Source of the DNA: an uncultured Gammaproteobacteria bacterium | GTDB taxonomy: Bacteria; Patescibacteriota; Patescibacteriia; UBA9934; GWF2-40-263 | Assembly (NCBI GenBank): GCA_964616135.1 | Contig: CAZTTQ010000001.1 | Coordinates: 43,875 to 107,874 of the forward strand | Direction of reading: 5' to 3' | Length of the DNA stretch: 64,000 nucleotides | In this document: one piece after another, positions 5,753 to 58,238 of the stretch | Position numbering within the stretch: position 1 is the stretch's first letter | How the letters are laid out: each line of letters opens with the position of its first letter | Program-made: the position numbers and the translations under genes | The notes under the pieces: model-generated | The model's input: the letters and a program-made list of their open reading frames with translations, nothing else | Databases searched by the model: none | Told to the model about the DNA's origin: nothing

Positions 5753-7279
5753 TCAGAACGACAGGTCTTTGCCGGCGACGAGCGGGTCGCCGTTGACGCA
5801 GAAGCCCTGCGCCATGACGAGGTCCGTGTAGCAGAAGCGGAGAATCTCGACGCGGAGGACGTTGCCCGGAACGGCCCGGGTCGCGTCCATTGCGAAACGG
5901 AAGACCCGTTCGGTCCCGTTTGCAAGCGTCCCGCCGTTTCCCGCCATGTTGATGACTGAGACCGTGGGGGAGATCGCCGTCCGGGTGACATCCGCGAAGA
6001 GTGCGGCGTCCGGCAGGGCGGCGTCCGTGGTCCGAACCGCCTCCGTGCCGCCGTACCACCCGTCGTGGGTGAGGCGGTACCGTACGGAGGTGAGGAGGGC
6101 GTCGTGTCCGGCGGGTGCGGCGGGGTTCACTACGCGGAACGCCAGCGTGTTGGCGAACGACGGGGAGACGGTTCCCGCGGGGGAATCGTCCGTCCGCGCG
6201 GCTTGCGGCATCTGGGGGATCCGGATGAACGCGTAGTCGTGGTGGGACGCGTTCGTCGCGCCGTAGGCGATCTCCGGAACTTCTCCCGTATCGGCGTCCC
6301 GCAGGTCGATGGACCGGAGGGACGCGGCCAGGAGGAAGTTCGGCGCGCCGACGTTCGCGTTCGTCCAACAGAAGACGCCGAGTTCGCCGGATCCATGCAG
6401 GACGAACGGTTGGTCCGCGAACGAGAGGACGGTCCGTCCCTCTTCGGCCGCGGGACGCCGTCCGGATGCCTGTCCCGGAGGCGTGGTTGGCCCCGCGTAG
6501 GAAACGTAGCAGGCGCCGATACGGTCGCGCAGCAAGGAGGAAGACGCCTCCCAGACGTTGGTCCCGTCGAACGGGGCCACGTCCTGGACGACGTCGAGGT
6601 CGATCCTGGCCACGCGGACGTTCCGGTCTCCGGCACGGACGGAGAGGCGGAGGAACTGGAACAGGCCGCCCGGATACGACTGGGTGACCGTGTCCTCGTC
6701 CGGAGACGCGTCCCCGACCGCCACGATGCCGGGCGGCGGGTTTACCAACGGTTCGCATGAGCGGCCGTCCGCGGCGAGGGTTTCCCCCCGTTCGCAGCGC
6801 CGCTTGCACGTGGCGGTTGCCGTGTCGAACAGCCATCCCTCGTCACACGTGACGTCGTAGGCGCAGGATGCATGGCCGGTCTCCCGGTCCATGTTCGGCG
6901 AGAGGCCGTCCGGACACGTGATCGTGACGTCCGGGCACTCCTTTTCGGAGAACACCTCCGCGCCCGTGGAGAGACAGACGTAGAAGATCACTTCTTCCGG
7001 CGGCTGCGTCGTGGGGCACGCGCCCGCGCGCGGGCGGATGGAACCGTCGGCGCAGACGTAGACGCGCTTCTCGACGACCTTCGCAGGACCGCCGAACGGA
7101 TGGCAGGCGATCCCGCCGTCTTCCACCACCGCCCCTTCATCGGGGAGGCAGGGGACTGAGAAGCAGGCGCCGGAGGAGGTCGCGTACGACCCTTCCGGGC
7201 ACGAGGAGGAGACGGGGGCGTCTCCACAGGATGCCAGGGCCGATGCGGCCAGGGCGAAGTACATGAGGCGGGTGCGCAT
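5753..7279 (-). CDS. secreted cysteine-rich lipoprotein, paralog 1 of a tandem family (508 aa)
   Basis: The signal peptide ends in a lipobox (ALASC) and the N-terminal half is cysteine-rich. The C-terminal region aligns with paralog 2 (e.g. VRVDVTGFCYRD / LRVEILRFCYTD). The gene has an ATG start with GGAGGT. Confidence 0.75.
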   Translation of the reverse strand: MRTRLMYFALAASALASCGDAPVSSSCPEGSYATSSGACFSVPCLPDEGAVVEDGGIACHPFGGPAKVVEKRVYVCADGSIRPRAGACPTTQPPEEVIFYVCLSTGAEVFSEKECPDVTITCPDGLSPNMDRETGHASCAYDVTCDEGWLFDTATATCKRRCERGETLAADGRSCEPLVNPPPGIVAVGDASPDEDTVTQSYPGGLFQFLRLSVRAGDRNVRVARIDLDVVQDVAPFDGTNVWEASSSLLRDRIGACYVSYAGPTTPPGQASGRRPAAEEGRTVLSFADQPFVLHGSGELGVFCWTNANVGAPNFLLAASLRSIDLRDADTGEVPEIAYGATNASHHDYAFIRIPQMPQAARTDDSPAGTVSPSFANTLAFRVVNPAAPAGHDALLTSVRYRLTHDGWYGGTEAVRTTDAALPDAALFADVTRTAISPTVSVINMAGNGGTLANGTERVFRFAMDATRAVPGNVLRVEILRFCYTDLVMAQGFCVNGDPLVAGKDLSF

Positions 7280-7346
7280 GGCACCTCCGATATCCCCGGA
7301 ATGGGGACGGGTTTTGGCCCTTTCAAGGGGGCCTGGTTGGGAGAGA
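7280..7346 (-). promoter_or_regulatory. conserved structured 5' leader (copy 1): two hairpins GGCCC-CCUUGAAA-GGGCC and UCCCC-AUUCC-GGGGA before GGAGG
   Basis: ~65 nt of near-identical sequence also at 9860-9925 and 10383-10450, read on the minus strand. Confidence 0.5.
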
Positions 7347-7356
7347 GCAAGGACGA

Positions 7357-7385
7357 ATGATAGGTCTTTTTCAACCGTTTGTCAA
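7357..7385 (-). promoter_or_regulatory. sigma70-type promoter TTGACA-N17-TATCAT (minus strand) for paralog 1
   Basis: Exact consensus -35 and 17-nt spacer; part of repeated cassette. Confidence 0.6.
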
Positions 7386-7438: not shown

Positions 7439-8791
7439 TCAGAACGTCCACGTCTCGCCCGTGATGAGCACGGAGGAGTTGTCCAGGCAGGTTTCCACGT
7501 CCGCGAACGGATCGCGGTAGCAGAACCCGGTGACGTCGACGCGGACGGTGTCCGTGCCGGGCGCCCGCGCCTGCTCCGTGTCCATCTGGAACCGGAGCGT
7601 CAGCGGACGGGACGCCTGGATCGGGACCGCGTCGCGGGCCGTGTCCTGCATGAGGAACAGGAATTCCCCGTTGCTGGCGTTCGTCTGGATGTTGGTGAAC
7701 AACGAGCGCGACGGGTCGCGGATGTCGGTCACCCGTACGGTGGAAGGCGCGGTGTACCAGCCGTTGTCGATGATCGCAAACTGGACGGACCAGGTCTGCA
7801 GATCTCGACAGGACGCGTCGGCCACCACGTCGAACCGGAGGACTTCCCGGAGCGTGGTGGGCGTGGTGGGGTCCCAGTCCGTCTGCCCGACCTGGAGGAC
7901 GGGCGGCGGACAGGGGGGAAGCGGCGCGGCGCGGACCTGGTAGCTGAAATCGCTGTTCAGGTCCTCGAAGGTCACTTCGCTGCCGACGATGGGTTCGCCG
8001 GTTTCCGCGTCGACCAGGGTGACCAGGTCGAGCACGAGCGCCACGTGGTATGCGACCGGCGACGGCTTGAGGTCGCACTGGACGCTCACGTTGATGGACG
8101 TCCCCGAGCCGACGGCTTCGGGAAAGAACACCATCGCCTGCTCGGACAGGGGGACGTGGTCCAAGGACACTGGCCCCGCGACCTGCGCGGTGCTTGCATC
8201 CGTCAGCGTGCAGTCGCCGAGGTATTCGGCGACGTCCGCCTGGGTATGGAGCCACAGGGTCCGGTCGGGCACGACGCCGTCCTGCTCCACGCCGACGTAG
8301 GCGAGGAACCGGACGTCGCGCAACGTCACGGCGCGCGTCTCGTCCTGGATGATGAGCGGAAACAGGTCGGTGCGGGTTCCCACCGTCGTGTCGACGAGCC
8401 GCGGGACGCCGCCGTTCGGCGGGCGGACGGAGACGGTCCCCCGGACCTGCTGTCGGACACAGCCGTCGCCGGAGGCGTTCACCGTCTGGCCGGGCGGGCA
8501 CACCTTGAGGCAGGCCTTGGAGACCTCCTCGTACGCGTACCCGTCCGCGCAGGCCCGGGGACAGTCTTCCGGACGATCGACGTAGGTGTCGGTCGCCACG
8601 CACTTGTACTTGGTGACCGTCTCCTTTACGGTCACGGTTTCCTTGATGACGACCGGGGCGTCGACCGGGCACCGGGCCGGGTCGGTCACCCGCGTCTGCG
8701 CCGCGTCGCGGCAGACGTATTCCTGCGGCACGTCACCGCAGGCGGTGGCAAGGGAAAAGAGCAAGACGAACGGGACAGGGGGACGGAACAT
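7439..8791 (-). CDS. secreted cysteine-containing lipoprotein, paralog 2 (451 aa)
   Basis: Start taken at MFRPPVPFVLLFSLATAC (lipobox) with AAGGAG 6 nt upstream; C-terminal homology to paralog 1; longer track ORF to 8887 rejected. Confidence 0.7.
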   Translation of the reverse strand: MFRPPVPFVLLFSLATACGDVPQEYVCRDAAQTRVTDPARCPVDAPVVIKETVTVKETVTKYKCVATDTYVDRPEDCPRACADGYAYEEVSKACLKVCPPGQTVNASGDGCVRQQVRGTVSVRPPNGGVPRLVDTTVGTRTDLFPLIIQDETRAVTLRDVRFLAYVGVEQDGVVPDRTLWLHTQADVAEYLGDCTLTDASTAQVAGPVSLDHVPLSEQAMVFFPEAVGSGTSINVSVQCDLKPSPVAYHVALVLDLVTLVDAETGEPIVGSEVTFEDLNSDFSYQVRAAPLPPCPPPVLQVGQTDWDPTTPTTLREVLRFDVVADASCRDLQTWSVQFAIIDNGWYTAPSTVRVTDIRDPSRSLFTNIQTNASNGEFLFLMQDTARDAVPIQASRPLTLRFQMDTEQARAPGTDTVRVDVTGFCYRDPFADVETCLDNSSVLITGETWTF

Positions 8792-8868: not shown

Positions 8869-8897
8869 ACGATAGGCGTTTTTCCAAGGTTTGTCAA
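8869..8897 (-). promoter_or_regulatory. sigma70-type promoter TTGACA-N17-TATCGT (minus strand) for paralog 2; cassette copy B
   Basis: Consensus -35, 17-nt spacer; ~85 nt cassette nearly identical to 7345-7440. Confidence 0.6.
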
Positions 8898-8959: not shown

Positions 8960-9859
8960 TTATGGCGTGTCGCGGGGATCGGGCTCCGTCCCGCAGAGGA
9001 TGTACCGGTTGCCGGCCAGCACGTCGAACGCCGTTTCAGAGAGGATGATCCTCTTACCGGTGGTTAGCCCGTACGCTTCGGTCCGGGAGACCACGAGGCT
9101 CGTGGCCCAGCCGTTGAAGCCGTGGGCATTCCGGCAGACGTTCATGTCGCCGGAGAGGCCAGTGTTGAGCTGGCTCGTCCCTCCCTTTGGGACGAACATC
9201 CGGATGGGGATTTGCGCGTCCGCGTTCACCGCTCCGTCGGCGGAGGCGTGGTACGCCACGTTGCCTTCGTCGGTGTAGTACACGTGACTGGCCGTGATCC
9301 AGCTCGCCCAGTCGCCCTGGAGGCCGAGGCTGCCCAGGCCGAGCGCGACCTTGGTGACCACGAAGTCTTCTCCGACCGCGTGGAACACGAACCCGCTCGT
9401 CTCCGCCCAGCTACCATCGGTTGCCGGAGCGTATTCGACGCGCTCGGTGCCGGCGAGGGTCACGTACACGCGGCTGGTGGCCGCGATGCGGGAGAGCTCG
9501 TCGCCGCCGACCGCCGTGCAGGTGCCGTCCGACTGCAGGACGTTGCCGGCGGCGCAAGGGAACTTCCACGCCGGCGTGCACGACCCATCCTCGTGGAGAA
9601 GATCTTCGTCCCCGCAAGGGAACACCCAGGGTGTCTCGGGGTCGGCCGGCGGGACGCAGGTTCCGTCGGACGCCTCGAGCATGCCGCGGGCGCAGTGCTT
9701 CTCCCGGGCGACCAGGTCGTCCGGATCGGCGCAGACGCCGAGGGACGTGAGCACTTCGCCGGCCCTGCAGGGGAACTTCCACGCCGCGGTGTCGCCGCAG
9801 GCGGAGAGGGTCGCCGCAAGCAGGATTGCCGCGGCGTAGAACGACGTGTGGATGCGCAA
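8960..9859 (-). CDS. secreted lipoprotein, paralog 3 (299 aa) with three internal W-[KV]-F-P-C...G.C repeats
   Basis: The signal peptide ends in the lipobox LSAC. The apparent start codon is TTG, directly after the conserved leader with GGAGGCGCG. Three ~35-aa repeats (WKFPCRAGEVL, WVFPCGDEDLL, WKFPCAAGNVL) are visible. Confidence 0.7.
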   Translation of the reverse strand: MRIHTSFYAAAILLAATLSACGDTAAWKFPCRAGEVLTSLGVCADPDDLVAREKHCARGMLEASDGTCVPPADPETPWVFPCGDEDLLHEDGSCTPAWKFPCAAGNVLQSDGTCTAVGGDELSRIAATSRVYVTLAGTERVEYAPATDGSWAETSGFVFHAVGEDFVVTKVALGLGSLGLQGDWASWITASHVYYTDEGNVAYHASADGAVNADAQIPIRMFVPKGGTSQLNTGLSGDMNVCRNAHGFNGWATSLVVSRTEAYGLTTGKRIILSETAFDVLAGNRYILCGTEPDPRDTP

Positions 9860-9925
9860 CGCGCCTCCGATGTCCCCGGGATGGGGACGGTTTTGGCCCT
9901 TTCAATGGGGCCGAGTTGCGAGAGA
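9860..9925 (-). promoter_or_regulatory. conserved structured 5' leader (copy 3)
   Basis: GGCCCCAUUGAAAGGGCC and GUCCCCAUCCCGGGGAC hairpins then GGAGG; near-identical to copies at 7280 and 10383. Confidence 0.5.
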
Positions 9926-10016: not shown

Positions 10017-10382
10017 TCACTTCGGAGGGATGACACCTTGGATGTCGTAGTCCATTATGGCGTCGCACTGCAGCTGGTCCTGCATATTGTGACCGCAGAA
10101 GTCGGCGGATGGGTCGTGGGTGACCACGATCGGTGCAATAGGTACGGGGTCTATGTGGAAGAAGAAGATCGGCGGATCCATCTCCTGAGCCATCTTGATT
10201 ACCGGCCCGGGCGGGCAGGAGCGGGGGTCGTTCGCCTCGGTGTCGTCGGCACAGACGTACACCTTTTCCGTCTGGACCACGACCTTCTCAGTCGTGACAG
10301 TGACGATCTCCGACTCGCAGGCCGCGATCAGGTTCGCCAGGGCCAGGATGGCCGCGGCGCAGAACGTGGTGTAAGCGCGCAA
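10017..10382 (-). CDS. small secreted lipoprotein, paralog 4 (121 aa)
   Basis: Signal peptide + lipobox (IAAC); TTG start after conserved leader GGAGGCGCT; Cys-containing. Confidence 0.65.
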   Translation of the reverse strand: MRAYTTFCAAAILALANLIAACESEIVTVTTEKVVVQTEKVYVCADDTEANDPRSCPPGPVIKMAQEMDPPIFFFHIDPVPIAPIVVTHDPSADFCGHNMQDQLQCDAIMDYDIQGVIPPK

Positions 10383-10450
10383 AGCGCCTCCGATGTCCCC
10401 GGGATGGGGACGGTTTTGGCCCTTTCAAGGGGGCCTGGTTGGGAACGTGC
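10383..10450 (-). promoter_or_regulatory. conserved structured 5' leader (copy 4)
   Basis: Same two-hairpin sequence as copies 1 and 3. Confidence 0.5.
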
Positions 10451-10627: not shown

Positions 10628-11179
<552 letters not shown>

Positions 11180-11190
11180 ATCAAGAGAGA

Positions 11191-11814
11191 TTACAGAGAA
11201 ATGGTTCTGGCTTTTAGGTAGAGTTCTTCTGCTCTTGCCCAGTTGAAGTTCTTCCAGAACGCGGCGATGTAAGCCGCCTTGTCCGCGCCGTAGTCCAGGA
11301 AGTACGCGTGTTCGTAGCAATCCATCACGATGACCGGGACACAGCCCCAGACGCCGCCTTGGTTGTGCGCGTCGCCGTTGTACTGCTTCAGCCGGCCGGC
11401 CTTCAAGTCCCAGCAGACGACGCTCCAGCCGCGCGACGCCATGCCGCAGGCGGAGAGATACGCGAGCGCGTTTTCCACGGAGCCCCATTTTTCGGCCAGG
11501 GCTTTGGAGAGTTCCGGCGCCGCGGCGACGTTGCCGTCCCCGCCTAAGACGTCAAAGTACCACTCGTGCAGGTAGACGCCGTTGACGGCGAAGGTCTCCG
11601 CGTCTTTTAGCGAACGCAGGTCCGAATAGGTGGCGTTGCCGGTGGCGGTGCCAGAGAGCGCCAGTTCTTTCAGCTTTTCGCTTACTTCTTTCAACTTATT
11701 CACGTAGCCGACGTACAGCTTGTCATGGTGGATCTCCACCGTCTTTTTTGAAATGCCGTCCAATTCCTTGGAAAAGGGAAGTGGGTGCGCTTGAACGTCC
11801 GCGTGGGAAGCCAT
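11191..11814 (-). CDS. Fe/Mn superoxide dismutase
   Basis: The product is 207 aa with SOD metal-ligand motifs (H...H, DxWEHAYY-like DCYEHAYFLDY); it lies 11 nt upstream of the peroxiredoxin on the same strand. Confidence 0.9.
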   Translation of the reverse strand: MASHADVQAHPLPFSKELDGISKKTVEIHHDKLYVGYVNKLKEVSEKLKELALSGTATGNATYSDLRSLKDAETFAVNGVYLHEWYFDVLGGDGNVAAAPELSKALAEKWGSVENALAYLSACGMASRGWSVVCWDLKAGRLKQYNGDAHNQGGVWGCVPVIVMDCYEHAYFLDYGADKAAYIAAFWKNFNWARAEELYLKARTISL

Positions 11815-19759: not shown

Positions 19760-19788
19760 ACGATAGGCGAAATAGGGCCCCTTGTCAA
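19760..19788 (-). promoter_or_regulatory. sigma70-type promoter TTGACA-N17-TATCGT (minus strand) for NUDIX gene
   Basis: Consensus -35, 17-nt spacer; sequence cgataggcg...ttgtcaa resembles the lipoprotein cassette promoter. Confidence 0.55.
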
Positions 19789-39293: not shown

Positions 39294-40100
39294 TTAGCGC
39301 CCGGCAAGGAGAAGGCCGAAGACGCGGCGGCAGGCGGAGAAGAATTTTTTCTGCTTGAGTGTAGCCAAAGCGACGGTGGTTGGGAAGACAACGACGGCGC
39401 GGGCGATCCGGACGAACCGGCGCGGTTCCAGGCCCAGGCGCCACAGCCATTCCCACCCTCGGTCACGCCAAGCCTGCGGCGCGCGCGGGAGAACGCCTCC
39501 CAGCATTTCCAGGGCGCCGCCGACGCCGATGGCGACGCGGACGTCCGGGAATCCGGACAGAACCTCTTCCATGAACAGTTCTTGCTTCCCCTGGCCGAGC
39601 GCCACCGCGACGACCGACGGGCGGCGGAGGCGGAACAGGTCCCGCGTGCTGGGTGACATGGTCCATGTCCCGTTTTCCGCGCGCAAAACCGTGCCGGGGT
39701 CATGGGCCTCAACCCGGAGCGTTGGGTACAGGCCGCGCAGATAGGCGGCGGCCGCTTCCCCGCTGCCCGTTTTGCCGCCAAGAAGCATCAAGGACTTTCC
39801 ATGTGCCGCGCACATGGCCGCCAACTCCTTTAGGACGTCCACGCCCGCGTGGCGATGCTCCAACCGGTCGCCGAACGCGGCGGCGGCGTACTGCAGGCCG
39901 ACGCCGTCCGGAACGGAGAGATCCGCCCGGTTCAACCGGGCGGCAAAGGCCTCATCTTTTTTGGCCTGCAGGAGGATTTCCGGGTTTGGCGTGACGACCG
40001 TATGCAAGCGCGGTTCTTCAAACCACGCCTCTACAAGCCCCCGCAGCTCCGCGAGGGTCAGGTCTTGGACGACGACACCGAACAGGGGGACGGGACGCAC
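39294..40100 (-). CDS. WecB/TagA/CpsF-family glycosyltransferase
   Basis: TPNPEIL and VPDGVGL motifs align with TagA/WecG; start uncertain (candidate GTG at 40100; no clear SD). Confidence 0.65.
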   Translation of the reverse strand: MRPVPLFGVVVQDLTLAELRGLVEAWFEEPRLHTVVTPNPEILLQAKKDEAFAARLNRADLSVPDGVGLQYAAAAFGDRLEHRHAGVDVLKELAAMCAAHGKSLMLLGGKTGSGEAAAAYLRGLYPTLRVEAHDPGTVLRAENGTWTMSPSTRDLFRLRRPSVVAVALGQGKQELFMEEVLSGFPDVRVAIGVGGALEMLGGVLPRAPQAWRDRGWEWLWRLGLEPRRFVRIARAVVVFPTTVALATLKQKKFFSACRRVFGLLLAGR

Positions 40101-40219
40101 ATGGGGGCACGGTAGCGCGAATAGGGAGGAAAAGAAAGGGGGCGCGGGTCTTGCCCGCACCCGCCTTTTCTGGTACCTTCCGGGTCCACGTCCGATCATT
40201 CCATCCGTCCGGAGGCCCC

Positions 40220-40657
40220 GTGGAAGTCTCGTTCCTGTCCGCTCGTGAACTGCAGCAGCGCTATCCATCCGCAACCAAGGCGTTCCGCCCGCCTGGCGGC
40301 CGCCACCCGTACGCGTTTGTCGCGACGAAGACGGAGGCCGTGGTCGGCGACGTCGGGAACCACCTGGCGCTGGCGCTTGCCGCGTGGCCGCCGTTCCCGG
40401 TGGACCTCACGTCCTATCTGCTCCGCGCGGTTTCCTTGGACACCCGTACCCAGGTGGTCGGGCTGGTCCGGCCGCACGTCGTCGTCGGCGGCCTGCTCGA
40501 CGTGCAAGGGATCGTGCGTTCGTGCGAGTGTCCCTCCGTCGGCGTCTTTTTCAGCGAACAGGACACCCCGCACGAAACGGTCCTGTACCTGAACGACCTG
40601 CGCGCGGCACTCTACGATTTCTTCGCGGAGCGGCGGCGCGCCCACCTCTCTCCCTGA
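40220..40657 (+). CDS. hypothetical protein (~145 aa) on opposite strand to flanking genes
   Basis: GTG start 4 nt after GGAGG; possible TTGCCC-N17-TACCTT promoter; ends at strong terminator; overlapping minus ORF 40196..40645 has antisense-like composition. Confidence 0.4.
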   Translation: MEVSFLSARELQQRYPSATKAFRPPGGRHPYAFVATKTEAVVGDVGNHLALALAAWPPFPVDLTSYLLRAVSLDTRTQVVGLVRPHVVVGGLLDVQGIVRSCECPSVGVFFSEQDTPHETVLYLNDLRAALYDFFAERRRAHLSP

Positions 40658-40680
40658 CCCGGCTTCCCGGGTCTTTTTTA
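40658..40680 (+). terminator. intrinsic terminator (cccggcttcccggg + TCTTTTTTA)
   Basis: Hairpin+T-tract immediately after stop 40657. Confidence 0.7.
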
Positions 40681-41679
40681 TACGGTGAACCGTCCGTCTT
40701 GGAATACCACGTCTTCGTCGATGAACACGCGGTCCGTATCCACGAACACGTCGATGTGGTACCGGCCGTCCTTGCGGGACAATCCGGGCTTGGCGTAGAT
40801 GGGGTGCTTCGCCCCGATGGACAGATGGACGCCCGTCATGCGTTCGTACGCGGTGATGTCGTCCACGACGCGGTGGCGGTCCATGGCCGGGTTCAACCCC
40901 AAGCCGAATTCCCGTACGAGCGGTCGTTCATGGCCCGAAACCAGTTCCATGACTTTGGCGAAATCCGCCGGCGCCGCGCTCCAGTCCGTGACAAGCCCGT
41001 CTTTCACTTCCAGGCGGAACGGCTCCACAATGCGGACGATGTGGTCGTCCGGAGCGTAGCCGTACACCAGAACCGCGCCGTTCACGCGGGTGAGATCCGC
41101 CGGCTCCGTGAAGACTTCCCCGATCGGGAATCCTCCGCCGACGTTTTTCAGTCCCTCATAGTTCCCCGTGTTCATTTTGGCGGGCTCCATGGCCCCGTCA
41201 TAGCGCAATTCGGCGCCGTGGCACACCACGCGGGCCGAGGCGCAGCGGTCGAGGCGTTCTTTCAGGCGGCGGCCGACGGCGCCGTCGCGTTCCGGGTGGA
41301 AGCCGAGCGACGCGACGTACGTGGCTTCCTGTGTCGGCGGGATGCGGTTCAGATGGCCGTGTTCGACCACTTTTAGCCCGCGGGCGAACAGTTCCACGCG
41401 GATGCGGAATTCGTTCAGGCGGAAATTGGCCGACTGGACGAGCACGACCAGTTCGCCGGGGACGCAGGCGTTCAGCGCGTCCTTGGTGGCGTCGACGCCC
41501 GCTTGGTCAAAATCCAGCACGCGCGCCCGCGGCAAAACGGCCTTGTACGCGTCGGTCAGTACGCGCGACAACGGGGACTGCAGGTCGAATACCAACAAGG
41601 CCGGCGCGTCGGCCGGGTGCCGGATGGCGTCCCGGACGATGGTGCCGGCGTGCTGCGTCGCAAGGGCGAGGAGGTCCAT
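40678..41679 (-). CDS. aminopeptidase, probably M29 (aminopeptidase T/S) family
   Basis: GFPIGEVFTEP and VHLSIG-type motifs recalled from M29; start at MDLLALATQ (M46). Confidence 0.45.
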   Translation of the reverse strand: MDLLALATQHAGTIVRDAIRHPADAPALLVFDLQSPLSRVLTDAYKAVLPRARVLDFDQAGVDATKDALNACVPGELVVLVQSANFRLNEFRIRVELFARGLKVVEHGHLNRIPPTQEATYVASLGFHPERDGAVGRRLKERLDRCASARVVCHGAELRYDGAMEPAKMNTGNYEGLKNVGGGFPIGEVFTEPADLTRVNGAVLVYGYAPDDHIVRIVEPFRLEVKDGLVTDWSAAPADFAKVMELVSGHERPLVREFGLGLNPAMDRHRVVDDITAYERMTGVHLSIGAKHPIYAKPGLSRKDGRYHIDVFVDTDRVFIDEDVVFQDGRFTV

Positions 41680-41789
41680 ATCGCGGGAAGGATACGGCAA
41701 AACGCCTTCCGCGGGAAGGGTTGACGCGCCGCGTGTTTTCTGGTTGAATGCGACGTCCGGCAGTCGGACACTGTCCCGAGGTGCAGCCC

Positions 41790-42713
41790 ATGGTGAAGAA
41801 AGCTTCCCCCTCACGTCAGGGGAAACGGTCGTCGAGGGGGTCTTCCTCTTCGCTCGGCGTGGATGCCTGGTTCCGTTACCAGGCGGAGATCAGCTCGCAT
41901 CCGATCCTGACGGCAGAGGAAGAACAGGATCTTGCACGGCGGTTTCGGGACGAAGGCGACCTGGACGCCATGCACGCGCTTATCACCTCGAACCTCCGGT
42001 TCGTCGTGAAGGTCACCTACGAGTACCGCAGCTACGGCTTTCGGCTGGCCGACCTCGTGCAGGAAGGCAACATCGGGCTCATGAAGGCCGTCCGGAAGTT
42101 CGACCCGGACCGGAATATCCGGCTCATCACGTACGCTGTCTGGTGGATCCGCGCGTACATCCAGAGCTTCATCCTGAGGAACTGGAGCCAGGTGAGGTTG
42201 GGAACGACCAATGCGCAGCGCACGCTGTTCTTCTCCCTTGCCCGCGTCCAGCGCGAGCTGGAACGGATGGGCGAAGAAGAGACCACGGACGAATCCATCG
42301 CGGAGCTGCTCCGGACCAAGCCGGAAGAGGTGCGCAACATGCGCGCCCGGCTCGAGGCGCGGGACGTGTCGCTCGACACGCCCGTCGGCGAGGAAGGGAC
42401 GGCGACGGCGCTGGACTTCCTCTCGGACGCGGCGCAATTGTCCGCGCACGATCTCCTGGAGGACGCGACGCGCGGACGCCTGGTCCGCGACCAGGTCGCC
42501 CGGGCGTTACGGTGCCTGAACCCGCGTGAGCTCTACGTCGTCAAGCAGCGGGTCATGGCCGATCCCCCCATGCCGCTCCAGGACGTCGGCAAGCATTTCG
42601 GCGTTTCACGCGAACGCGCCCGCCAAATCGAGGTGCGGGCGAAGCAGCGTCTCCGCTCCATCCTCGGCGCGTACCTGGAAATCCCGCTTGAGGACGAAGA
42701 AGAGAAGAAGTGA
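41790..42713 (+). CDS. sigma-70 family sigma factor, RpoH (sigma-32)-like
   Basis: Regions 2-4 present; QRTLFFSL resembles the RpoH box Q(R/K)(K/R)LFFNLR; start MVKKASPS with GAGGTG SD; possible TTGACG-N17-TTGAAT promoter at ~41721-41749. Confidence 0.8.
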   Translation: MVKKASPSRQGKRSSRGSSSSLGVDAWFRYQAEISSHPILTAEEEQDLARRFRDEGDLDAMHALITSNLRFVVKVTYEYRSYGFRLADLVQEGNIGLMKAVRKFDPDRNIRLITYAVWWIRAYIQSFILRNWSQVRLGTTNAQRTLFFSLARVQRELERMGEEETTDESIAELLRTKPEEVRNMRARLEARDVSLDTPVGEEGTATALDFLSDAAQLSAHDLLEDATRGRLVRDQVARALRCLNPRELYVVKQRVMADPPMPLQDVGKHFGVSRERARQIEVRAKQRLRSILGAYLEIPLEDEEEKK

Positions 42714-42722
42714 TCTCCCCTC

Positions 42723-42758
42723 CCCCGCCTCCGCCACTCGGAGACGGGGTCTTTTTTA
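42723..42758 (+). terminator. intrinsic terminator after sigma factor gene
   Basis: ccccgcctccg/cggagacgggg stem + TCTTTTTTA. Confidence 0.6.
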
Positions 42759-42769
42759 TGCGGACAGGT

Positions 42770-43579
42770 TTATGCGGACAGGACGACTTCCACCGGGCAG
42801 TGGTCGCTGCCCATCTGCGAGGCGAGGATGGCGGCGGACCTGATGCGGCTTTTCAGCGCCTTGCTGGCCAGCCAGTAGTCGATGCGCCAGCCGACGTTGC
42901 GCGCGCGGGCGTTCGCCCAGTGCGTCCACCAGGAATAGTGGCCGTTCCCTTTGGTGAACAGGCGGAACGTGTCGAGGAATCCGGCGTCCAGGAACGCCTG
43001 GAATCCGGCGCGTTCCTCCTCCGTGAACCCGTGTTTGCCGACATTCTGCTTGGGGTTTGCCAGGTCGTCTTCCGTATGGGCGACGTTGAAGTCCCCGGAG
43101 ACCAACACGGGCTTGGTCTTTTCCAGCAGCTTCACGTGGGCCAAGAACGCCGGATCCCAGTGTTTTTTCCGCAGGTCCAGGCGCGACAAGTCCTCTTTGC
43201 TGTTGGGCACGTAAGCCGTGACCACCCAGAAGTCCTTGAACTCCGCGCTGATGACGCGGCCTTCGCACGTCGGGTCGCCGTATTCGTCCGCACCGAGTTT
43301 GTATTTTTCCGCAATGCCGTCCGCAAAGCCGTAGAGAACGGAGATCGGCTTTTCCTTGCTGAAGATGGCGGTGCCGCTGTAACCGGCTTTTTCCGCGCTG
43401 TTCCAGTATTCCTCATAGTCCGGCAGGTCCACGTCGGCCTGGCCTTGCTTTGCCTTGGTTTCCTGCAGGCAGAGGACGTCGGGTTCGTACGCTTCAATGA
43501 ACGCGCGAAAATCCCCCTTGTTCAACACGGCGCGGATCCCGTTTACGTTCCAGGAAATGAGGCGGAGGGTTTTGGGCAT
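42770..43579 (-). CDS. xth: exodeoxyribonuclease III (AP endonuclease, Xth family)
   Basis: LISWNVNGIRA, LCLQETK, SDHCPV motifs. Confidence 0.9.
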   Translation of the reverse strand: MPKTLRLISWNVNGIRAVLNKGDFRAFIEAYEPDVLCLQETKAKQGQADVDLPDYEEYWNSAEKAGYSGTAIFSKEKPISVLYGFADGIAEKYKLGADEYGDPTCEGRVISAEFKDFWVVTAYVPNSKEDLSRLDLRKKHWDPAFLAHVKLLEKTKPVLVSGDFNVAHTEDDLANPKQNVGKHGFTEEERAGFQAFLDAGFLDTFRLFTKGNGHYSWWTHWANARARNVGWRIDYWLASKALKSRIRSAAILASQMGSDHCPVEVVLSA

Positions 43580-56441: not shown

Positions 56442-58238
56442 CTATAGGTTTGTATCTATCCAATCAAAGATCTGGTTGAATCGAGTAATTGTGTCGATAT
56501 GAATTTTTTTCTTAGTAATTGATCCATCCGACACTTTCTCAAAAAAAGATTTAGCAAATACAATCTTCCGTTTTTCACCGATGGACTCAGCTGGATCTGT
56601 TTTTTGAACAATTTTATCGTCAATTAACTTTAAGTCATCCAAATGAAGTAGGTTTTCTACGGATGAAATTCCAATAGTGATATACATCTTGGAGGCAGCA
56701 GCTCCCTCGTCTTTTTCGAAGAGATGTTCTTTGATTTCTTCGTAAGTTTTTTGAGAATCTTTTCCTCGCGAAGAATCGTCATCGAAAATTGCGACCCAAG
56801 AAATACCGTAACCAATACAAAATGAAACTAGAGTGTATTGTTTTCTGACACCTATTCCCGGTATGAAGGCGTAGTCTGCAATATCACGTTTGAGGAGGGT
56901 TCTCATTGCACTGTAGTAATAAAAATCTGAAACTCCTTCCAGAATCACACTCTTTTTATTTGTCAGCCCAAAATCGCTTACCGAGAAGCCAATAGCATTT
57001 GCCACTGGCTGGAGTGCATCTTGTTTATTCTGAGAATCAATTTTGGAGGAAGTGATATTCTCTATCAATGTTCCTTTGGTTTTATCATTTACGATGAGGT
57101 GTATTCTTTCAAGATGATCTGTCCTGATCAAATTTGGCGAATGAGTTGAGTAGAGAAATTGATGCCCCGTTTTTGTTAGAGATTCAAATACATTGAGGAT
57201 GTCGGTCTGAGCTTTTATATGAAGATAGAGTCCGGGTTCATCCGCTAAAACAATCAATTCTCTCTCATGACCACTCGCCTGTAATTCCATCCAAAAAGAA
57301 AGAAACCATACCAATCCCTTACTCCGCATTCGGGGACGAATTTTTTGTTTATCCTTTGTCTCAATATAAAAACTTACAAAAGTGTCATCTTCGGAAGATC
57401 GTTTTTCGAATTTATAGGCAATTTTTACTCTATTATCACCGTGAATTTGTTGCTTCCATGCTTTTGTAAAATCAATCGATATAGCTTCATTATGTTTTTC
57501 CTCAATAGAGTCTCTCTTCAAGTCATCTAGACTGTACAGAGTTTTAAAATCTGCACCTGATATTTTTTCAAAGTTTTTTACGGCCTTATACCCTTTTGAA
57601 TCTTTTTTGTCGCTTTTTAGATCCTTAAGCGAGAAGGTGTCTGGCAATAGATCGCAGAAATCATTAAACAAGATGATTTTAGGAGTATGGTTCCAGAATA
57701 ACTCAGCGACTTCTGAATTCTGATCGTCAGTAAGTTCAATAATCTTTTTCCTCTCCTTCTTTACTGGAGCAACTTCTGCCTCCACATTAACGTCTTCTTC
57801 AAGAATAGAGCTACGAAAGATCTGAAAAACTGCTTCAGGGATAGATGTCTGCACCTTTTTAGAGGGATTTAGCGTTCGAGTAATTTTAAAATCTTTTACC
57901 GTGCGTTTCAGTTTTGGGATGTCAATTAATGATCCGACTTTAGCTCGCTCAATCTCATTCTGTTCACCAAATGTTTTTTCAATTTCATCCCAAAAATCAG
58001 AATCCGATTCTTCAATTTCGTATGTGCATGACACCTCTTGAATTGGTGACTCAAAATCAAATGGTATGGAATCTGATTCAAATTCTGCGTTTTCAAAAGC
58101 AGCCAGACCCTCTAAAATAGAGCTTTTACCAGACTCATTTTGACCAGCGAAAATTGCAATTCTCCCATTACCTAAAGAAATCTCTCCAGTATCCTGAATG
58201 GACTTATAATTCTTAATTCGGAATGATTTCAATTTCAT
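56442..58238 (-). CDS. OLD-family ATP-dependent endonuclease (ABC-type ATPase + C-terminal Toprim), standalone
   Basis: The ATPase half has Walker A GQNESGKSS, Walker B LIVLADEPGLYLH and H-loop STHSP. The Toprim half has Glu (VILEGVSD) and DxD (IFDDDS). Gene GC is ~35% against a ~65% background. Confidence 0.75.
   Translation of the reverse strand: MKLKSFRIKNYKSIQDTGEISLGNGRIAIFAGQNESGKSSILEGLAAFENAEFESDSIPFDFESPIQEVSCTYEIEESDSDFWDEIEKTFGEQNEIERAKVGSLIDIPKLKRTVKDFKITRTLNPSKKVQTSIPEAVFQIFRSSILEEDVNVEAEVAPVKKERKKIIELTDDQNSEVAELFWNHTPKIILFNDFCDLLPDTFSLKDLKSDKKDSKGYKAVKNFEKISGADFKTLYSLDDLKRDSIEEKHNEAISIDFTKAWKQQIHGDNRVKIAYKFEKRSSEDDTFVSFYIETKDKQKIRPRMRSKGLVWFLSFWMELQASGHERELIVLADEPGLYLHIKAQTDILNVFESLTKTGHQFLYSTHSPNLIRTDHLERIHLIVNDKTKGTLIENITSSKIDSQNKQDALQPVANAIGFSVSDFGLTNKKSVILEGVSDFYYYSAMRTLLKRDIADYAFIPGIGVRKQYTLVSFCIGYGISWVAIFDDDSSRGKDSQKTYEEIKEHLFEKDEGAAASKMYITIGISSVENLLHLDDLKLIDDKIVQKTDPAESIGEKRKIVFAKSFFEKVSDGSITKKKIHIDTITRFNQIFDWIDTNL

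Follow-up and report, generated by a model that had tools for sequence, protein, structure and literature searches.

Within a 64,000-nucleotide (nt) stretch of DNA (contig CAZTTQ010000001.1, positions 43,875 to 107,874; hereafter the window), a plus-strand gene at 41790..42713 encodes a 307-amino-acid (aa) alternative sigma factor of the RpoH family (sigma-32 type). The reading that we favor, and consider likely, is that this gene is an acquired and variable cassette which, together with an independent orphan small gene, is set within a string of minus-strand housekeeping genes. That string runs DAO-xth-[slot]-M29-like peptidase ... wecG-gltX-M23 and has two plus-strand units inside it. The sigma gene, a divergent peptidase-like gene, and the small open reading frame (ORF) are all present at, or a few bases from, the places assigned to them in an earlier description made from the sequence alone (the first-pass annotation). 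The protein is of a known kind, and it occurs in an unexpected and volatile genomic setting.

An RpoH-family sigma factor with its own signals

The sigma ORF spans 41748-42713, and translation likely starts at the ATG at 41790, after a GAGGTG Shine-Dalgarno sequence at 41778-41783. The product has the group 3 architecture, with Pfam regions 1.2, 2, 3, and 4 (PF00140, PF04542, PF04539, and PF04545) all above their cutoffs. Among NCBIfam models, those for RpoH score highest: the protein passes the sigma-32 subfamily model NF005143 (286.4 bits versus a cutoff of 241), does not reach the narrower proteobacterial equivalogs (TIGR02392, 291 versus 323; NF005693, 250 versus 315), and scores far lower with the non-RpoH models (RpoS, 192; RpoD, 168; SigB, 141; SigB/F/G, 78). 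The RpoH box, the hallmark of the family, which lies between regions 2.4 and 3.0 (PMC4843759), reads QRTLFFSLA (aa 143-151; 42216..42242, plus strand) and matches QRKLFFNLR of E. coli at 6 of 9 positions and the Myxococcota-type QRKLFFSLA at 8 of 9. Its first eight residues, QRTLFFSL (aa 143-150, nt 42216-42239), are the motif from which the first-pass annotation had recognized an RpoH-like sigma factor, and that recognition holds.

Phylogenetic placement leads to the same family. In a neighbor-joining (NJ) tree computed from 297 columns and 126 sequences (the window sigma factor, 3 sigma factors of related loci, 119 best matches, and E. coli RpoH, RpoS, and RpoD), 97 of 100 bootstraps put the window sigma factor in an RpoH clade that includes neither RpoS nor RpoD; the analysis is distance based, and its reference sigma factors are these three E. 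coli proteins. The sigma factor of the related locus L005 likewise falls inside this clade, and E. coli RpoH (36% identity) forms an outer branch relative to the window sigma factor and its best matches. Because the hidden Markov models, the RpoH box, and the tree, in which the protein groups with RpoH and apart from RpoS and RpoD, all agree, the window protein is identified as a true RpoH-family group 3 sigma factor.

The sigma cassette would comprise its own promoter-like site, Shine-Dalgarno sequence, 307-aa gene, and terminator. The putative promoter, TTGACG-N17-TTGAAT (41721..41749, plus strand), is missed by a consensus scan and is conserved upstream of the sigma gene in four sigma-bearing lineages. 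The predicted intrinsic terminator (42723..42756, plus strand; fold, -17.8 kcal/mol) has a slightly mismatched stem, CCCCGCCTCCG...CGGAGACGGGG, followed by T6. The first 205 nt at the 5' end of the sigma gene fold no better than shuffled sequences (z = -1.2), giving no sign of an RNA thermometer. G+C by codon position is 0.66/0.43/0.84 in the sigma gene and 0.58/0.41/0.83 in the neighboring xth. Matches to MzaA had hinted at a link with a defense system; they reflect generic sigma-70 domain similarity, and the link was rejected.

The window protein has regions 1.2, 2, 3, and 4 and the RpoH box in common with RpoH/sigma-32 (NF005143; TIGR02392) of the Myxococcota/deltaproteobacterial subfamily, and its recognition segments in regions 2.4 and 4.2 are close to those of that subfamily. 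The deltaproteobacterial sigma-32 consensus is CTTGAAA-N11-16-CCCCAT (PMC545781), and because the recognition segments are similar, the window sigma factor would be expected to read such promoters. Unlike its RpoH relatives, it appears to be a dispensable cassette in a probable Patescibacteria genome, carries a basic, Ser-rich N-terminal extension of 14 aa, lacks the HisKA|rpoH|DUF192-PilZ context, and has lipoprotein genes rather than chaperone genes as its candidate targets.

A variable slot between xth and the peptidase gene

Presence of the sigma gene was followed across relatives of the locus. An alignment-based scan for the peptidase, with one genome per species, gave 80 loci (a single-sequence scan gave no matches), and tblastn placed a sigma gene beside the peptidase gene only at the closest of these, L005 (81% identity), and at none of the other 79. 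Contigs of close relatives were added through exact-protein look-ups, for a total of seven syntenic lineages including the window, all of which keep M23-gltX-wecG-[small ORF, opposite strand]-peptidase-...-xth in that order. Between the peptidase gene and xth, the slot contains an RpoH-type sigma gene in the window and L005, a sigma gene of 238/239 aa in L001-3 and L089, and an empty spacer of 20-63 nt in L085, L086-88, and L090. Since the slot holds the RpoH type in two lineages, a remodeled type in two, and nothing in three, the sigma gene is best regarded as a dispensable accessory cassette and not as part of a conserved module.

The edges of the variable segment are sharp. The window and L001 are ~75% identical at the DNA level in the flanks, and this value falls to 22-55% exactly across 41747-42744. 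At sigma-less loci, xth lies directly upstream of the peptidase gene and in the same direction, and the peptidase-proximal hairpin is joined directly to the xth stop codon. A search for mobile-element signatures around the cassette gave nothing but a perfect 14-nt tandem duplication (TTTATGCGGACAGG x2) at 42755-42782, which is absent from relatives and takes in the last xth codons and stop at the junction with the sigma terminator.

A tree of the flanking proteins (1283 columns) has the topology (L090,(L005,(L085,((L001,L089),(WIN,L086))))), in which WIN is the window, with support of 100/100/70/99.5/100. Read along this tree, the slot is empty in L090, RpoH type in L005, empty in L085, occupied by the 238-aa pair in L001 and L089, RpoH type in the window, and empty in L086. 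The sister lineage of the window (L086, with flanks 87% identical) and the outgroup (L090) thus both lack a sigma gene in the slot.

Both types of sigma gene are bordered by the same signals. An upstream element, GGGTTGACG-N17-(T/C)TGAAT-like (TTTCAT in L005), is common to the four sigma-bearing lineages, as is, at the same position 3' of the sigma gene, a hairpin/T-run terminator, with clear homology among those of the window, L001, and L089. These shared flanking signals argue that the two types stem from one cassette origin. The shorter genes (L001, 11572-12288, plus strand; L089, 5180-5899, minus strand) have the same flanking signals as the window sigma gene. Their products, which share 59% identity as a pair and 31-36% with the window sigma factor, have neither the RpoH box nor region 3 and pass no NCBIfam model; the NJ tree puts them next to the RpoH clade, as its sister group. 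They look like derivatives of an RpoH-type sigma factor that were remodeled in situ.

In the simplest history, a single rpoH-type cassette of ~1.1 kb would have been inserted between xth and the peptidase gene after the L090 split; the sigma factor, once acquired, would have evolved fast, with an internal deletion and rapid divergence in the ancestor of L001 and L089 that removed the RpoH box and region 3; and the sigma gene would have been lost from the slot twice, in L085 and in L086. As an alternative to a single insertion with losses, the cassette may have spread by recombination among relatives, and the sigma gene would be accessory either way.

The variable occupancy of the slot bears directly on the functional claim of the first-pass annotation, which had joined the three genes into one stress-responsive module, with the sigma factor coregulating the peptidase through a shared control region of about 110 nt and the small gene as an insulated accessory. 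Its geometry is real, in that the spacer between the divergent sigma and peptidase genes is 110 nt long (41680-41789) and terminators flank the small gene, and RpoH regulons elsewhere include proteases (PMC545781). Shared control, however, does not follow from the spacer, which appears to be a by-product of cassette insertion because xth and the peptidase gene are codirectional and 20-63 nt apart in sigma-less relatives. A small hairpin with T4 that immediately precedes the peptidase start codon (41688..41717, minus strand; fold, -13.8 kcal/mol) is kept in six crown-clade lineages, with a sigma gene or with none (the spacer of the outgroup L090 is only 20 nt), and is the ancestral element of the xth-peptidase spacer, unchanged by the arrival of the sigma gene. 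Adjacency of the sigma and peptidase genes is absent not only from 79/79 more distant loci but also from 3/7 syntenic lineages, including the sister of the window, and the sigma gene varies within a narrow clade. No sigma-32-like motif with <=2 mismatches occurs upstream of the sigma gene, the peptidase gene, or the small ORF, and the window as a whole offers no candidates for a heat shock regulon: motifs of DnaK, GroEL, ClpB, FtsH, Lon, and other chaperones or ATP-dependent proteases were sought and gave none, as did a search for the CIRCE element (0 matches). Three matches of a loose pattern for Hsp20-like genes were set aside as chance. A single stress module encompassing the three genes is, on this evidence, very unlikely.

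The closest relatives of the sigma factor lie outside the lineage of its neighbors. Its 120 best database matches are RpoH proteins at 54-61% identity; those that are named (54-58%) come mostly from Myxococcota and include Melittangium, Archangium, Corallococcus, Anaeromyxobacteraceae, Myxococcales, two "Pseudomonadota bacterium" metagenome-assembled genomes (MAGs), and one Solirubrobacterales MAG. None of the 120 is a Patescibacteria-named protein. Three top matches sit in diderm-like contexts, with an outer membrane protein beta-barrel, kdsA/kdsB, and a recurrent HisKA|rpoH|...DUF192-PilZ arrangement. The L005 sigma factor is 64-66% identical to outside RpoH proteins and 55-58% identical to that of the window, and E. 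coli RpoH reaches only 36-39% identity. Because the closest relatives are Myxococcota-type RpoH proteins in diderm-like contexts and E. coli RpoH is more distant, the sigma gene was most likely acquired horizontally, from a Myxococcota-like donor, by the ancestor of this small clade.

Were the RpoH-type sigma factor ancestral and vertically inherited instead, with loss in the sigma-less relatives and no transfer, the shared flanking signals would equally indicate one cassette origin. Such inheritance would also suit the G+C content of the sigma gene, which is the same as that of host genes overall and at third codon positions (GC3, 0.84), so that GC3 gives no signal of transfer, and the position of the two RpoH-type sigma factors at the base of the Myxococcota-type set in the NJ tree rather than deep inside it. 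For a phylum this deeply separate, it is, however, hard to fit with identities of 55-66% to proteins of Myxococcota-like diderms against 36-39% to E. coli RpoH, and the outgroup L090 and the 79 wider loci have no sigma gene there, nor is there a Patescibacteria-named protein among the best matches. We therefore consider purely vertical descent quite unlikely.

Some observations weigh against the favored history of one acquisition followed by losses. In the NJ tree, no bootstrap (0/100) groups the sigma factors of the window and L005 with each other; they appear as successive basal branches, a pattern for which distance methods do not separate independent acquisitions from long-branch artifacts. 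In addition, the sigma-less contigs are 6-13 kb long, so a sigma gene could sit elsewhere in those genomes.

The host is probably a Patescibacteria lineage, Uhrbacteria/Magasanikbacteria-like and of unusually high G+C content (62%). It is treated as such because the nearest named relatives of the peptidase are from "Candidatus Uhrbacteria," Magasanikbacteria, and "Patescibacteria group," and because the window carries gene types that are common in monoderm or candidate phyla radiation (CPR) genomes and not in Proteobacteria (PRK12267-type methionyl-tRNA synthetase, PRK03868-type glucose-6-phosphate isomerase, a PcrA-type helicase, and a TarA-like WecG). Telling against this indirect placement are the lack of any rRNA, tRNA, or Rfam match within the window, the occurrence of the peptidase family at 44-50% identity outside Patescibacteria (Massilia, Zemynaea, Nitrospirota, and Acidobacteriota), and the titles of the closest MAGs at NCBI, "uncultured Gammaproteobacteria." Those titles are probably a placeholder or mis-mapped taxonomy, since the window, a close syntenic match to L005, carries gene types that are not those of Gammaproteobacteria. 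Many MAGs titled "uncultured Gammaproteobacteria bacterium" encode a peptidase as close to that of the window as are the peptidases in records named Uhrbacteria, Magasanikbacteria, or Patescibacteria. A literature search on RpoH or alternative sigma factors in Patescibacteria or CPR bacteria found nothing relevant.

The orphan small gene and its convergent neighbor

The small gene (40220..40657, plus strand) encodes 145 aa, the 146 given by the first-pass annotation having included the stop codon; the opposite-strand orientation and the GGAGG-N4-GTG start that it described are as stated, with GGAGG at 40211-40215, then CCCC and the GTG. G+C by codon position in the plus frame (0.73/0.47/0.84) is like that of genuine genes of the window. 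An antisense ORF of 149 aa (40196-40645, minus strand) was rejected as a mirror-frame artifact, given its mirror pattern of codon-position G+C.

Homologs, sought by word-indexed and exhaustive searches, occur only inside the clade (P0002, P0123, and P0124; 144-145 aa), and an exhaustive HMMER search returned two representatives only, both of that same clade. With a five-member profile, the genes at the corresponding position in L090 (147 aa; E = 3e-9) and L005 (167 aa; E = 3.5e-4) are also recognized, the latter weakly. The five clear members have GTG starts and lengths of 144-145 aa, that of L089 being extended to 175 aa by the gene caller. The gene is at the same position in seven of seven lineages, including all three that lack a sigma gene. 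It is under purifying selection (ratio of nonsynonymous to synonymous substitution rates [dN/dS], 0.25-0.65) that is relaxed relative to the peptidase gene (0.06-0.23) and xth (0.04-0.09). The protein is predicted to be cytoplasmic, has no match in Pfam, PDB, PHROGs, or PADLOC, and has no recognized fold, its structure model (from an alignment of two sequences) being unusable at a predicted local distance difference test score (pLDDT) of 39. As judged by these features, the small ORF is a genuine, fast-evolving orphan gene.

Its distribution also bears on whether the small protein serves the neighboring sigma factor as a dedicated regulator, such as an anti-sigma factor. It is encoded one gene away from the sigma gene and, like many anti-sigma factors, is small, lineage restricted, and fast evolving. 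The gene nevertheless keeps its position in the three sigma-less lineages (L085, L086, and L090), and L090 predates the cassette. Divergences of the two proteins do not track each other: relative to L001, the small protein is 61% identical and the sigma factor 30%, whereas relative to L005, the values are 22-25% and 55-58%. The small protein has no anti-sigma domain match, and RpoH-type sigma factors are classically, in textbook accounts, controlled by chaperones and FtsH and not by anti-sigma factors. Because the gene is found at loci without a sigma gene, the outgroup included, and its divergence does not follow that of the sigma factor, a regulatory partnership is highly improbable; the small gene appears to predate the sigma insertion.

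The small gene seems to be transcribed separately, between terminators. Both of the terminators that had been proposed to bracket it were found, and both are conserved in relatives with different stems. A consensus scan of the region gave 8 terminator-like sites, versus 2.8 +/- 1.9 in shuffles. On the plus strand, the predicted intrinsic terminator of the small gene (40656..40679; stem, 40656-40673; T6, 40674-40679) overlaps the peptidase stop codon, and a hairpin/T-run is present there in 7/7 lineages, with stem sequences that differ. On the minus strand, a predicted intrinsic terminator between the small gene and wecG (40130..40162; -25 kcal/mol) has a stem of 9 pairs (8 of them G-C) at 40162-40140, followed by CCTTTCTTTT at 40139-40130; this hairpin is kept in five lineages, in which changes in the stem are compensatory and the tail, CTTTCTTTT, is invariant. 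Its invariant loop, read on the plus strand, provides the -35-like TTGCCC of the putative sigma-70-like promoter of the small gene, TTGCCC-N17-TACCTT (40151..40179, plus strand). With the window, five lineages have such an element, TTGCCC-N17/18-TACATT or TATATT being kept in L001, L086, L085, and L089.

The minus-strand hairpin is intergenic because wecG starts at the GTG at 40100, not at the ATG at 40199 of the gene-caller models. wecG (39294..40100, minus strand) encodes a WecG/TagA/CpsF-family glycosyltransferase (Pfam PF03808, E = 2e-36) of 268 aa from the corrected start, which was adopted because the supposed N-terminal extension of 99 nt (40101-40199) has flat G+C across codon positions (0.61/0.64/0.64) and no protein conservation and because the wecG genes of relatives are called at 267-270 aa. 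In several relatives, too, the wecG models of gene callers begin ~100 nt too early. Nowhere in the region is DNA conservation higher than at 40030-40124 (94% identity to L001), a segment that includes the first wecG codons and ~24 nt before them (…CGCTACCGTGCCCCCATGTG) and that may be a promoter region with a short leader or none.

The small gene is convergent with the peptidase gene, which has no U-tailed terminator of its own before that at 40130-40162, and peptidase transcripts may run antisense across the whole of the small gene. Such an arrangement could act as an excludon-like switch, in which a ~520-nt antisense 3' untranslated region of the peptidase transcript passes through the small gene and renders the expression of the two genes mutually exclusive. 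The hairpin at the peptidase stop is U-tailed on the plus strand only, in 7/7 lineages; on the minus strand, the first terminator is reached only past the small gene and is kept with compensatory changes in five; and there is no other minus-strand gene for that terminator to end. An A-tract precedes the hairpin, however, which may terminate partly in both directions, and protection of wecG from antisense or pervasive transcription could be all that the minus-strand terminator provides, so we advance a switch of this kind only tentatively, as a minority possibility. As in excludons and bidirectional terminators, potential 3' read-through from the convergent neighbor would take in the whole of the small gene, and the terminator positions would allow full overlap of the two transcripts; the excludons of Listeria and others were defined by transcriptomics, whereas conserved geometry is what the present locus shows.

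The convergent neighbor (40678..41679, minus strand) encodes an M29-fold peptidase-like protein of 333 aa. The first-pass annotation had called it an M29-type aminopeptidase, which stands at the level of the fold but not at that of the Pfam sequence threshold: the match to M29 (PF02073) is below the cutoff (18.1 bits versus 27; E = 1.3e-3) and covers 53 residues, and the protein has no NCBIfam match and no PDB sequence match to M29. An AlphaFold (AF2) model built from 22 sequences (pLDDT, 86.9) has as its top five Foldseek matches 2ayi, 4ics, 4icr, 4icq, and 1zjc (probability, 1.00; E = 4e-11 to 4e-10), which are the M29 enzymes AmpT, PepS, and AmpS, followed by the shorter M29-like proteins CgnB and CgnE (E, ~1e-9). 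The model has the two-domain fold of M29 enzymes (AmpT of Thermus, AmpS of S. aureus, and PepS of S. pneumoniae) and of CgnB/CgnE (probability, 1.0; E = 1e-11 to 1e-8; template modeling score, 0.52-0.65 by query length). Its 333 aa contrast with ~400-413 aa in the M29 enzymes, to which it is 14-15% identical, and are nearer to the ~305 aa of CgnB/CgnE, named in their PDB entries as proteins of crocagin peptide natural-product biosynthesis. E188, E192, E257, E279, H285, H292, H308, and D310 are invariant in 22 homologs, with a C-terminal H308-x-D310, and are compatible with the predicted M29 di-metal ligand set (2 Glu, 2 His, and 1 Asp). The family has >1000 homologs of ~333 aa, most of them annotated as "hypothetical," and its named members are mostly from Patescibacteria. 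Modeling thus points to an M29 assignment at the fold level only, in a family that Pfam and NCBIfam sequence models miss.

On the other side of the sigma slot, xth (42770..43579, minus strand) encodes exodeoxyribonuclease III, as assigned from TIGR00633 (287 bits versus a cutoff of 99) and synteny.

Candidate sigma-32 promoters and the lipoprotein cassette

The sigma factor would most likely act as an ordinary alternative sigma factor, binding core RNA polymerase and directing it to promoters of the CTTGAAA-N13-14-CCCCAT type. The full sigma-32 consensus occurs in the window as two exact copies and one copy with a single mismatch, against 0.03 exact copies expected under a Markov model, and no exact copy was found in 906 kb of other loci. 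The sites (CTTGAAA-N13/14-CCCCAT) lie at 7301-7327, 9881-9906 (one mismatch), and 10404-10429, all on the minus strand, and each belongs to a 55-nt block, GCCCC[C/A]TTGAAAGGGCCAAAA(C)CCGTCCCCAT[C/T]CCGGGGA[C/T]ATCGGAGG[C/T]GC, that also holds a 6-bp hairpin and GGAGG. The block ends 2 nt before the start codons of three lipoprotein genes (5753-7279, 8960-9859, and 10017-10382), ~30 kb from the sigma gene. Because the three proteins have no mutual BLASTP similarity and no Pfam match, and the DNA on either side of the block is unrelated, the block itself is apparently a selected regulatory cassette and not a remnant of duplication. Two Joint Genome Institute metagenome scans for it gave 0 matches.

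The promoter consensus search that the first-pass annotation had called for upstream of chaperone and protease genes was thus productive in another place, the only such promoters of the window being three copies of a putative promoter-leader cassette before unrelated lipoprotein genes (5.7-10.4 kb). That the sigma factor drives these genes is a serious candidate explanation, to which we give somewhat less than an even chance. Weighing against it, the three sites are copies of one cassette and so amount to one independent event (p ~0.03), and the CCCCAT makes up half of the 6-bp hairpin that adjoins the Shine-Dalgarno sequence, a position that would also suit a block acting as an RNA leader element and not as a sigma-32 promoter.

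A bolder reading is that an ultra-small Patescibacteria lineage captured a Myxococcota-like RpoH sigma factor and rewired it to unrelated surface lipoproteins instead of chaperones, the polymorphism of sigma on, off, and truncated among sister lineages making up a surface-remodeling switch that would serve, e.g., host attachment or immune evasion in an episymbiont. This would rest on one promoter-like cassette, and we hold it to be unlikely.

Other features accompany the lipoprotein genes. Near-consensus sigma-70 promoters (TTGACA-N17-TATCAT or TATCGT) lie at 7357-7385, 8869-8897, and 19760-19788, all on the minus strand, the first two being upstream of Cys-rich lipoprotein genes at 5753-7279 and 7439-8785. 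The gene at 5753-7279 thus has tandem sites, one sigma-70-like and one sigma-32-like. Beside the lipoprotein cluster is an oxidative-stress pair on the minus strand, an AhpC/TSA peroxiredoxin gene (10628-11203) and an Fe/Mn superoxide dismutase gene (11191-11814), which are adjacent and overlap slightly. Farther away, a gene for an OLD/AriA/PtuA-like AAA ATPase of 598 aa (56442-58238, minus strand; PADLOC Old, E = 4e-24; Pfam AAA_15) lies in a low-G+C patch (36.5%, versus 62% for the window) and is probably a horizontally acquired antiphage defense gene.

The locus exposes two gaps in annotation, an M29-fold family of >1000 members that current models miss and an orphan gene whose transcription-unit layout is unusually well conserved. 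It also offers natural states for comparison, an intact RpoH-type sigma factor, a derivative without the RpoH box, and no sigma factor, with a candidate target cassette at hand. Patescibacteria are thought to have few regulators. If the favored history is true, a horizontally acquired, fast-evolving, and repeatedly lost sigma factor would mean that the regulatory capacity of such reduced genomes is fluid even between individual lineages.

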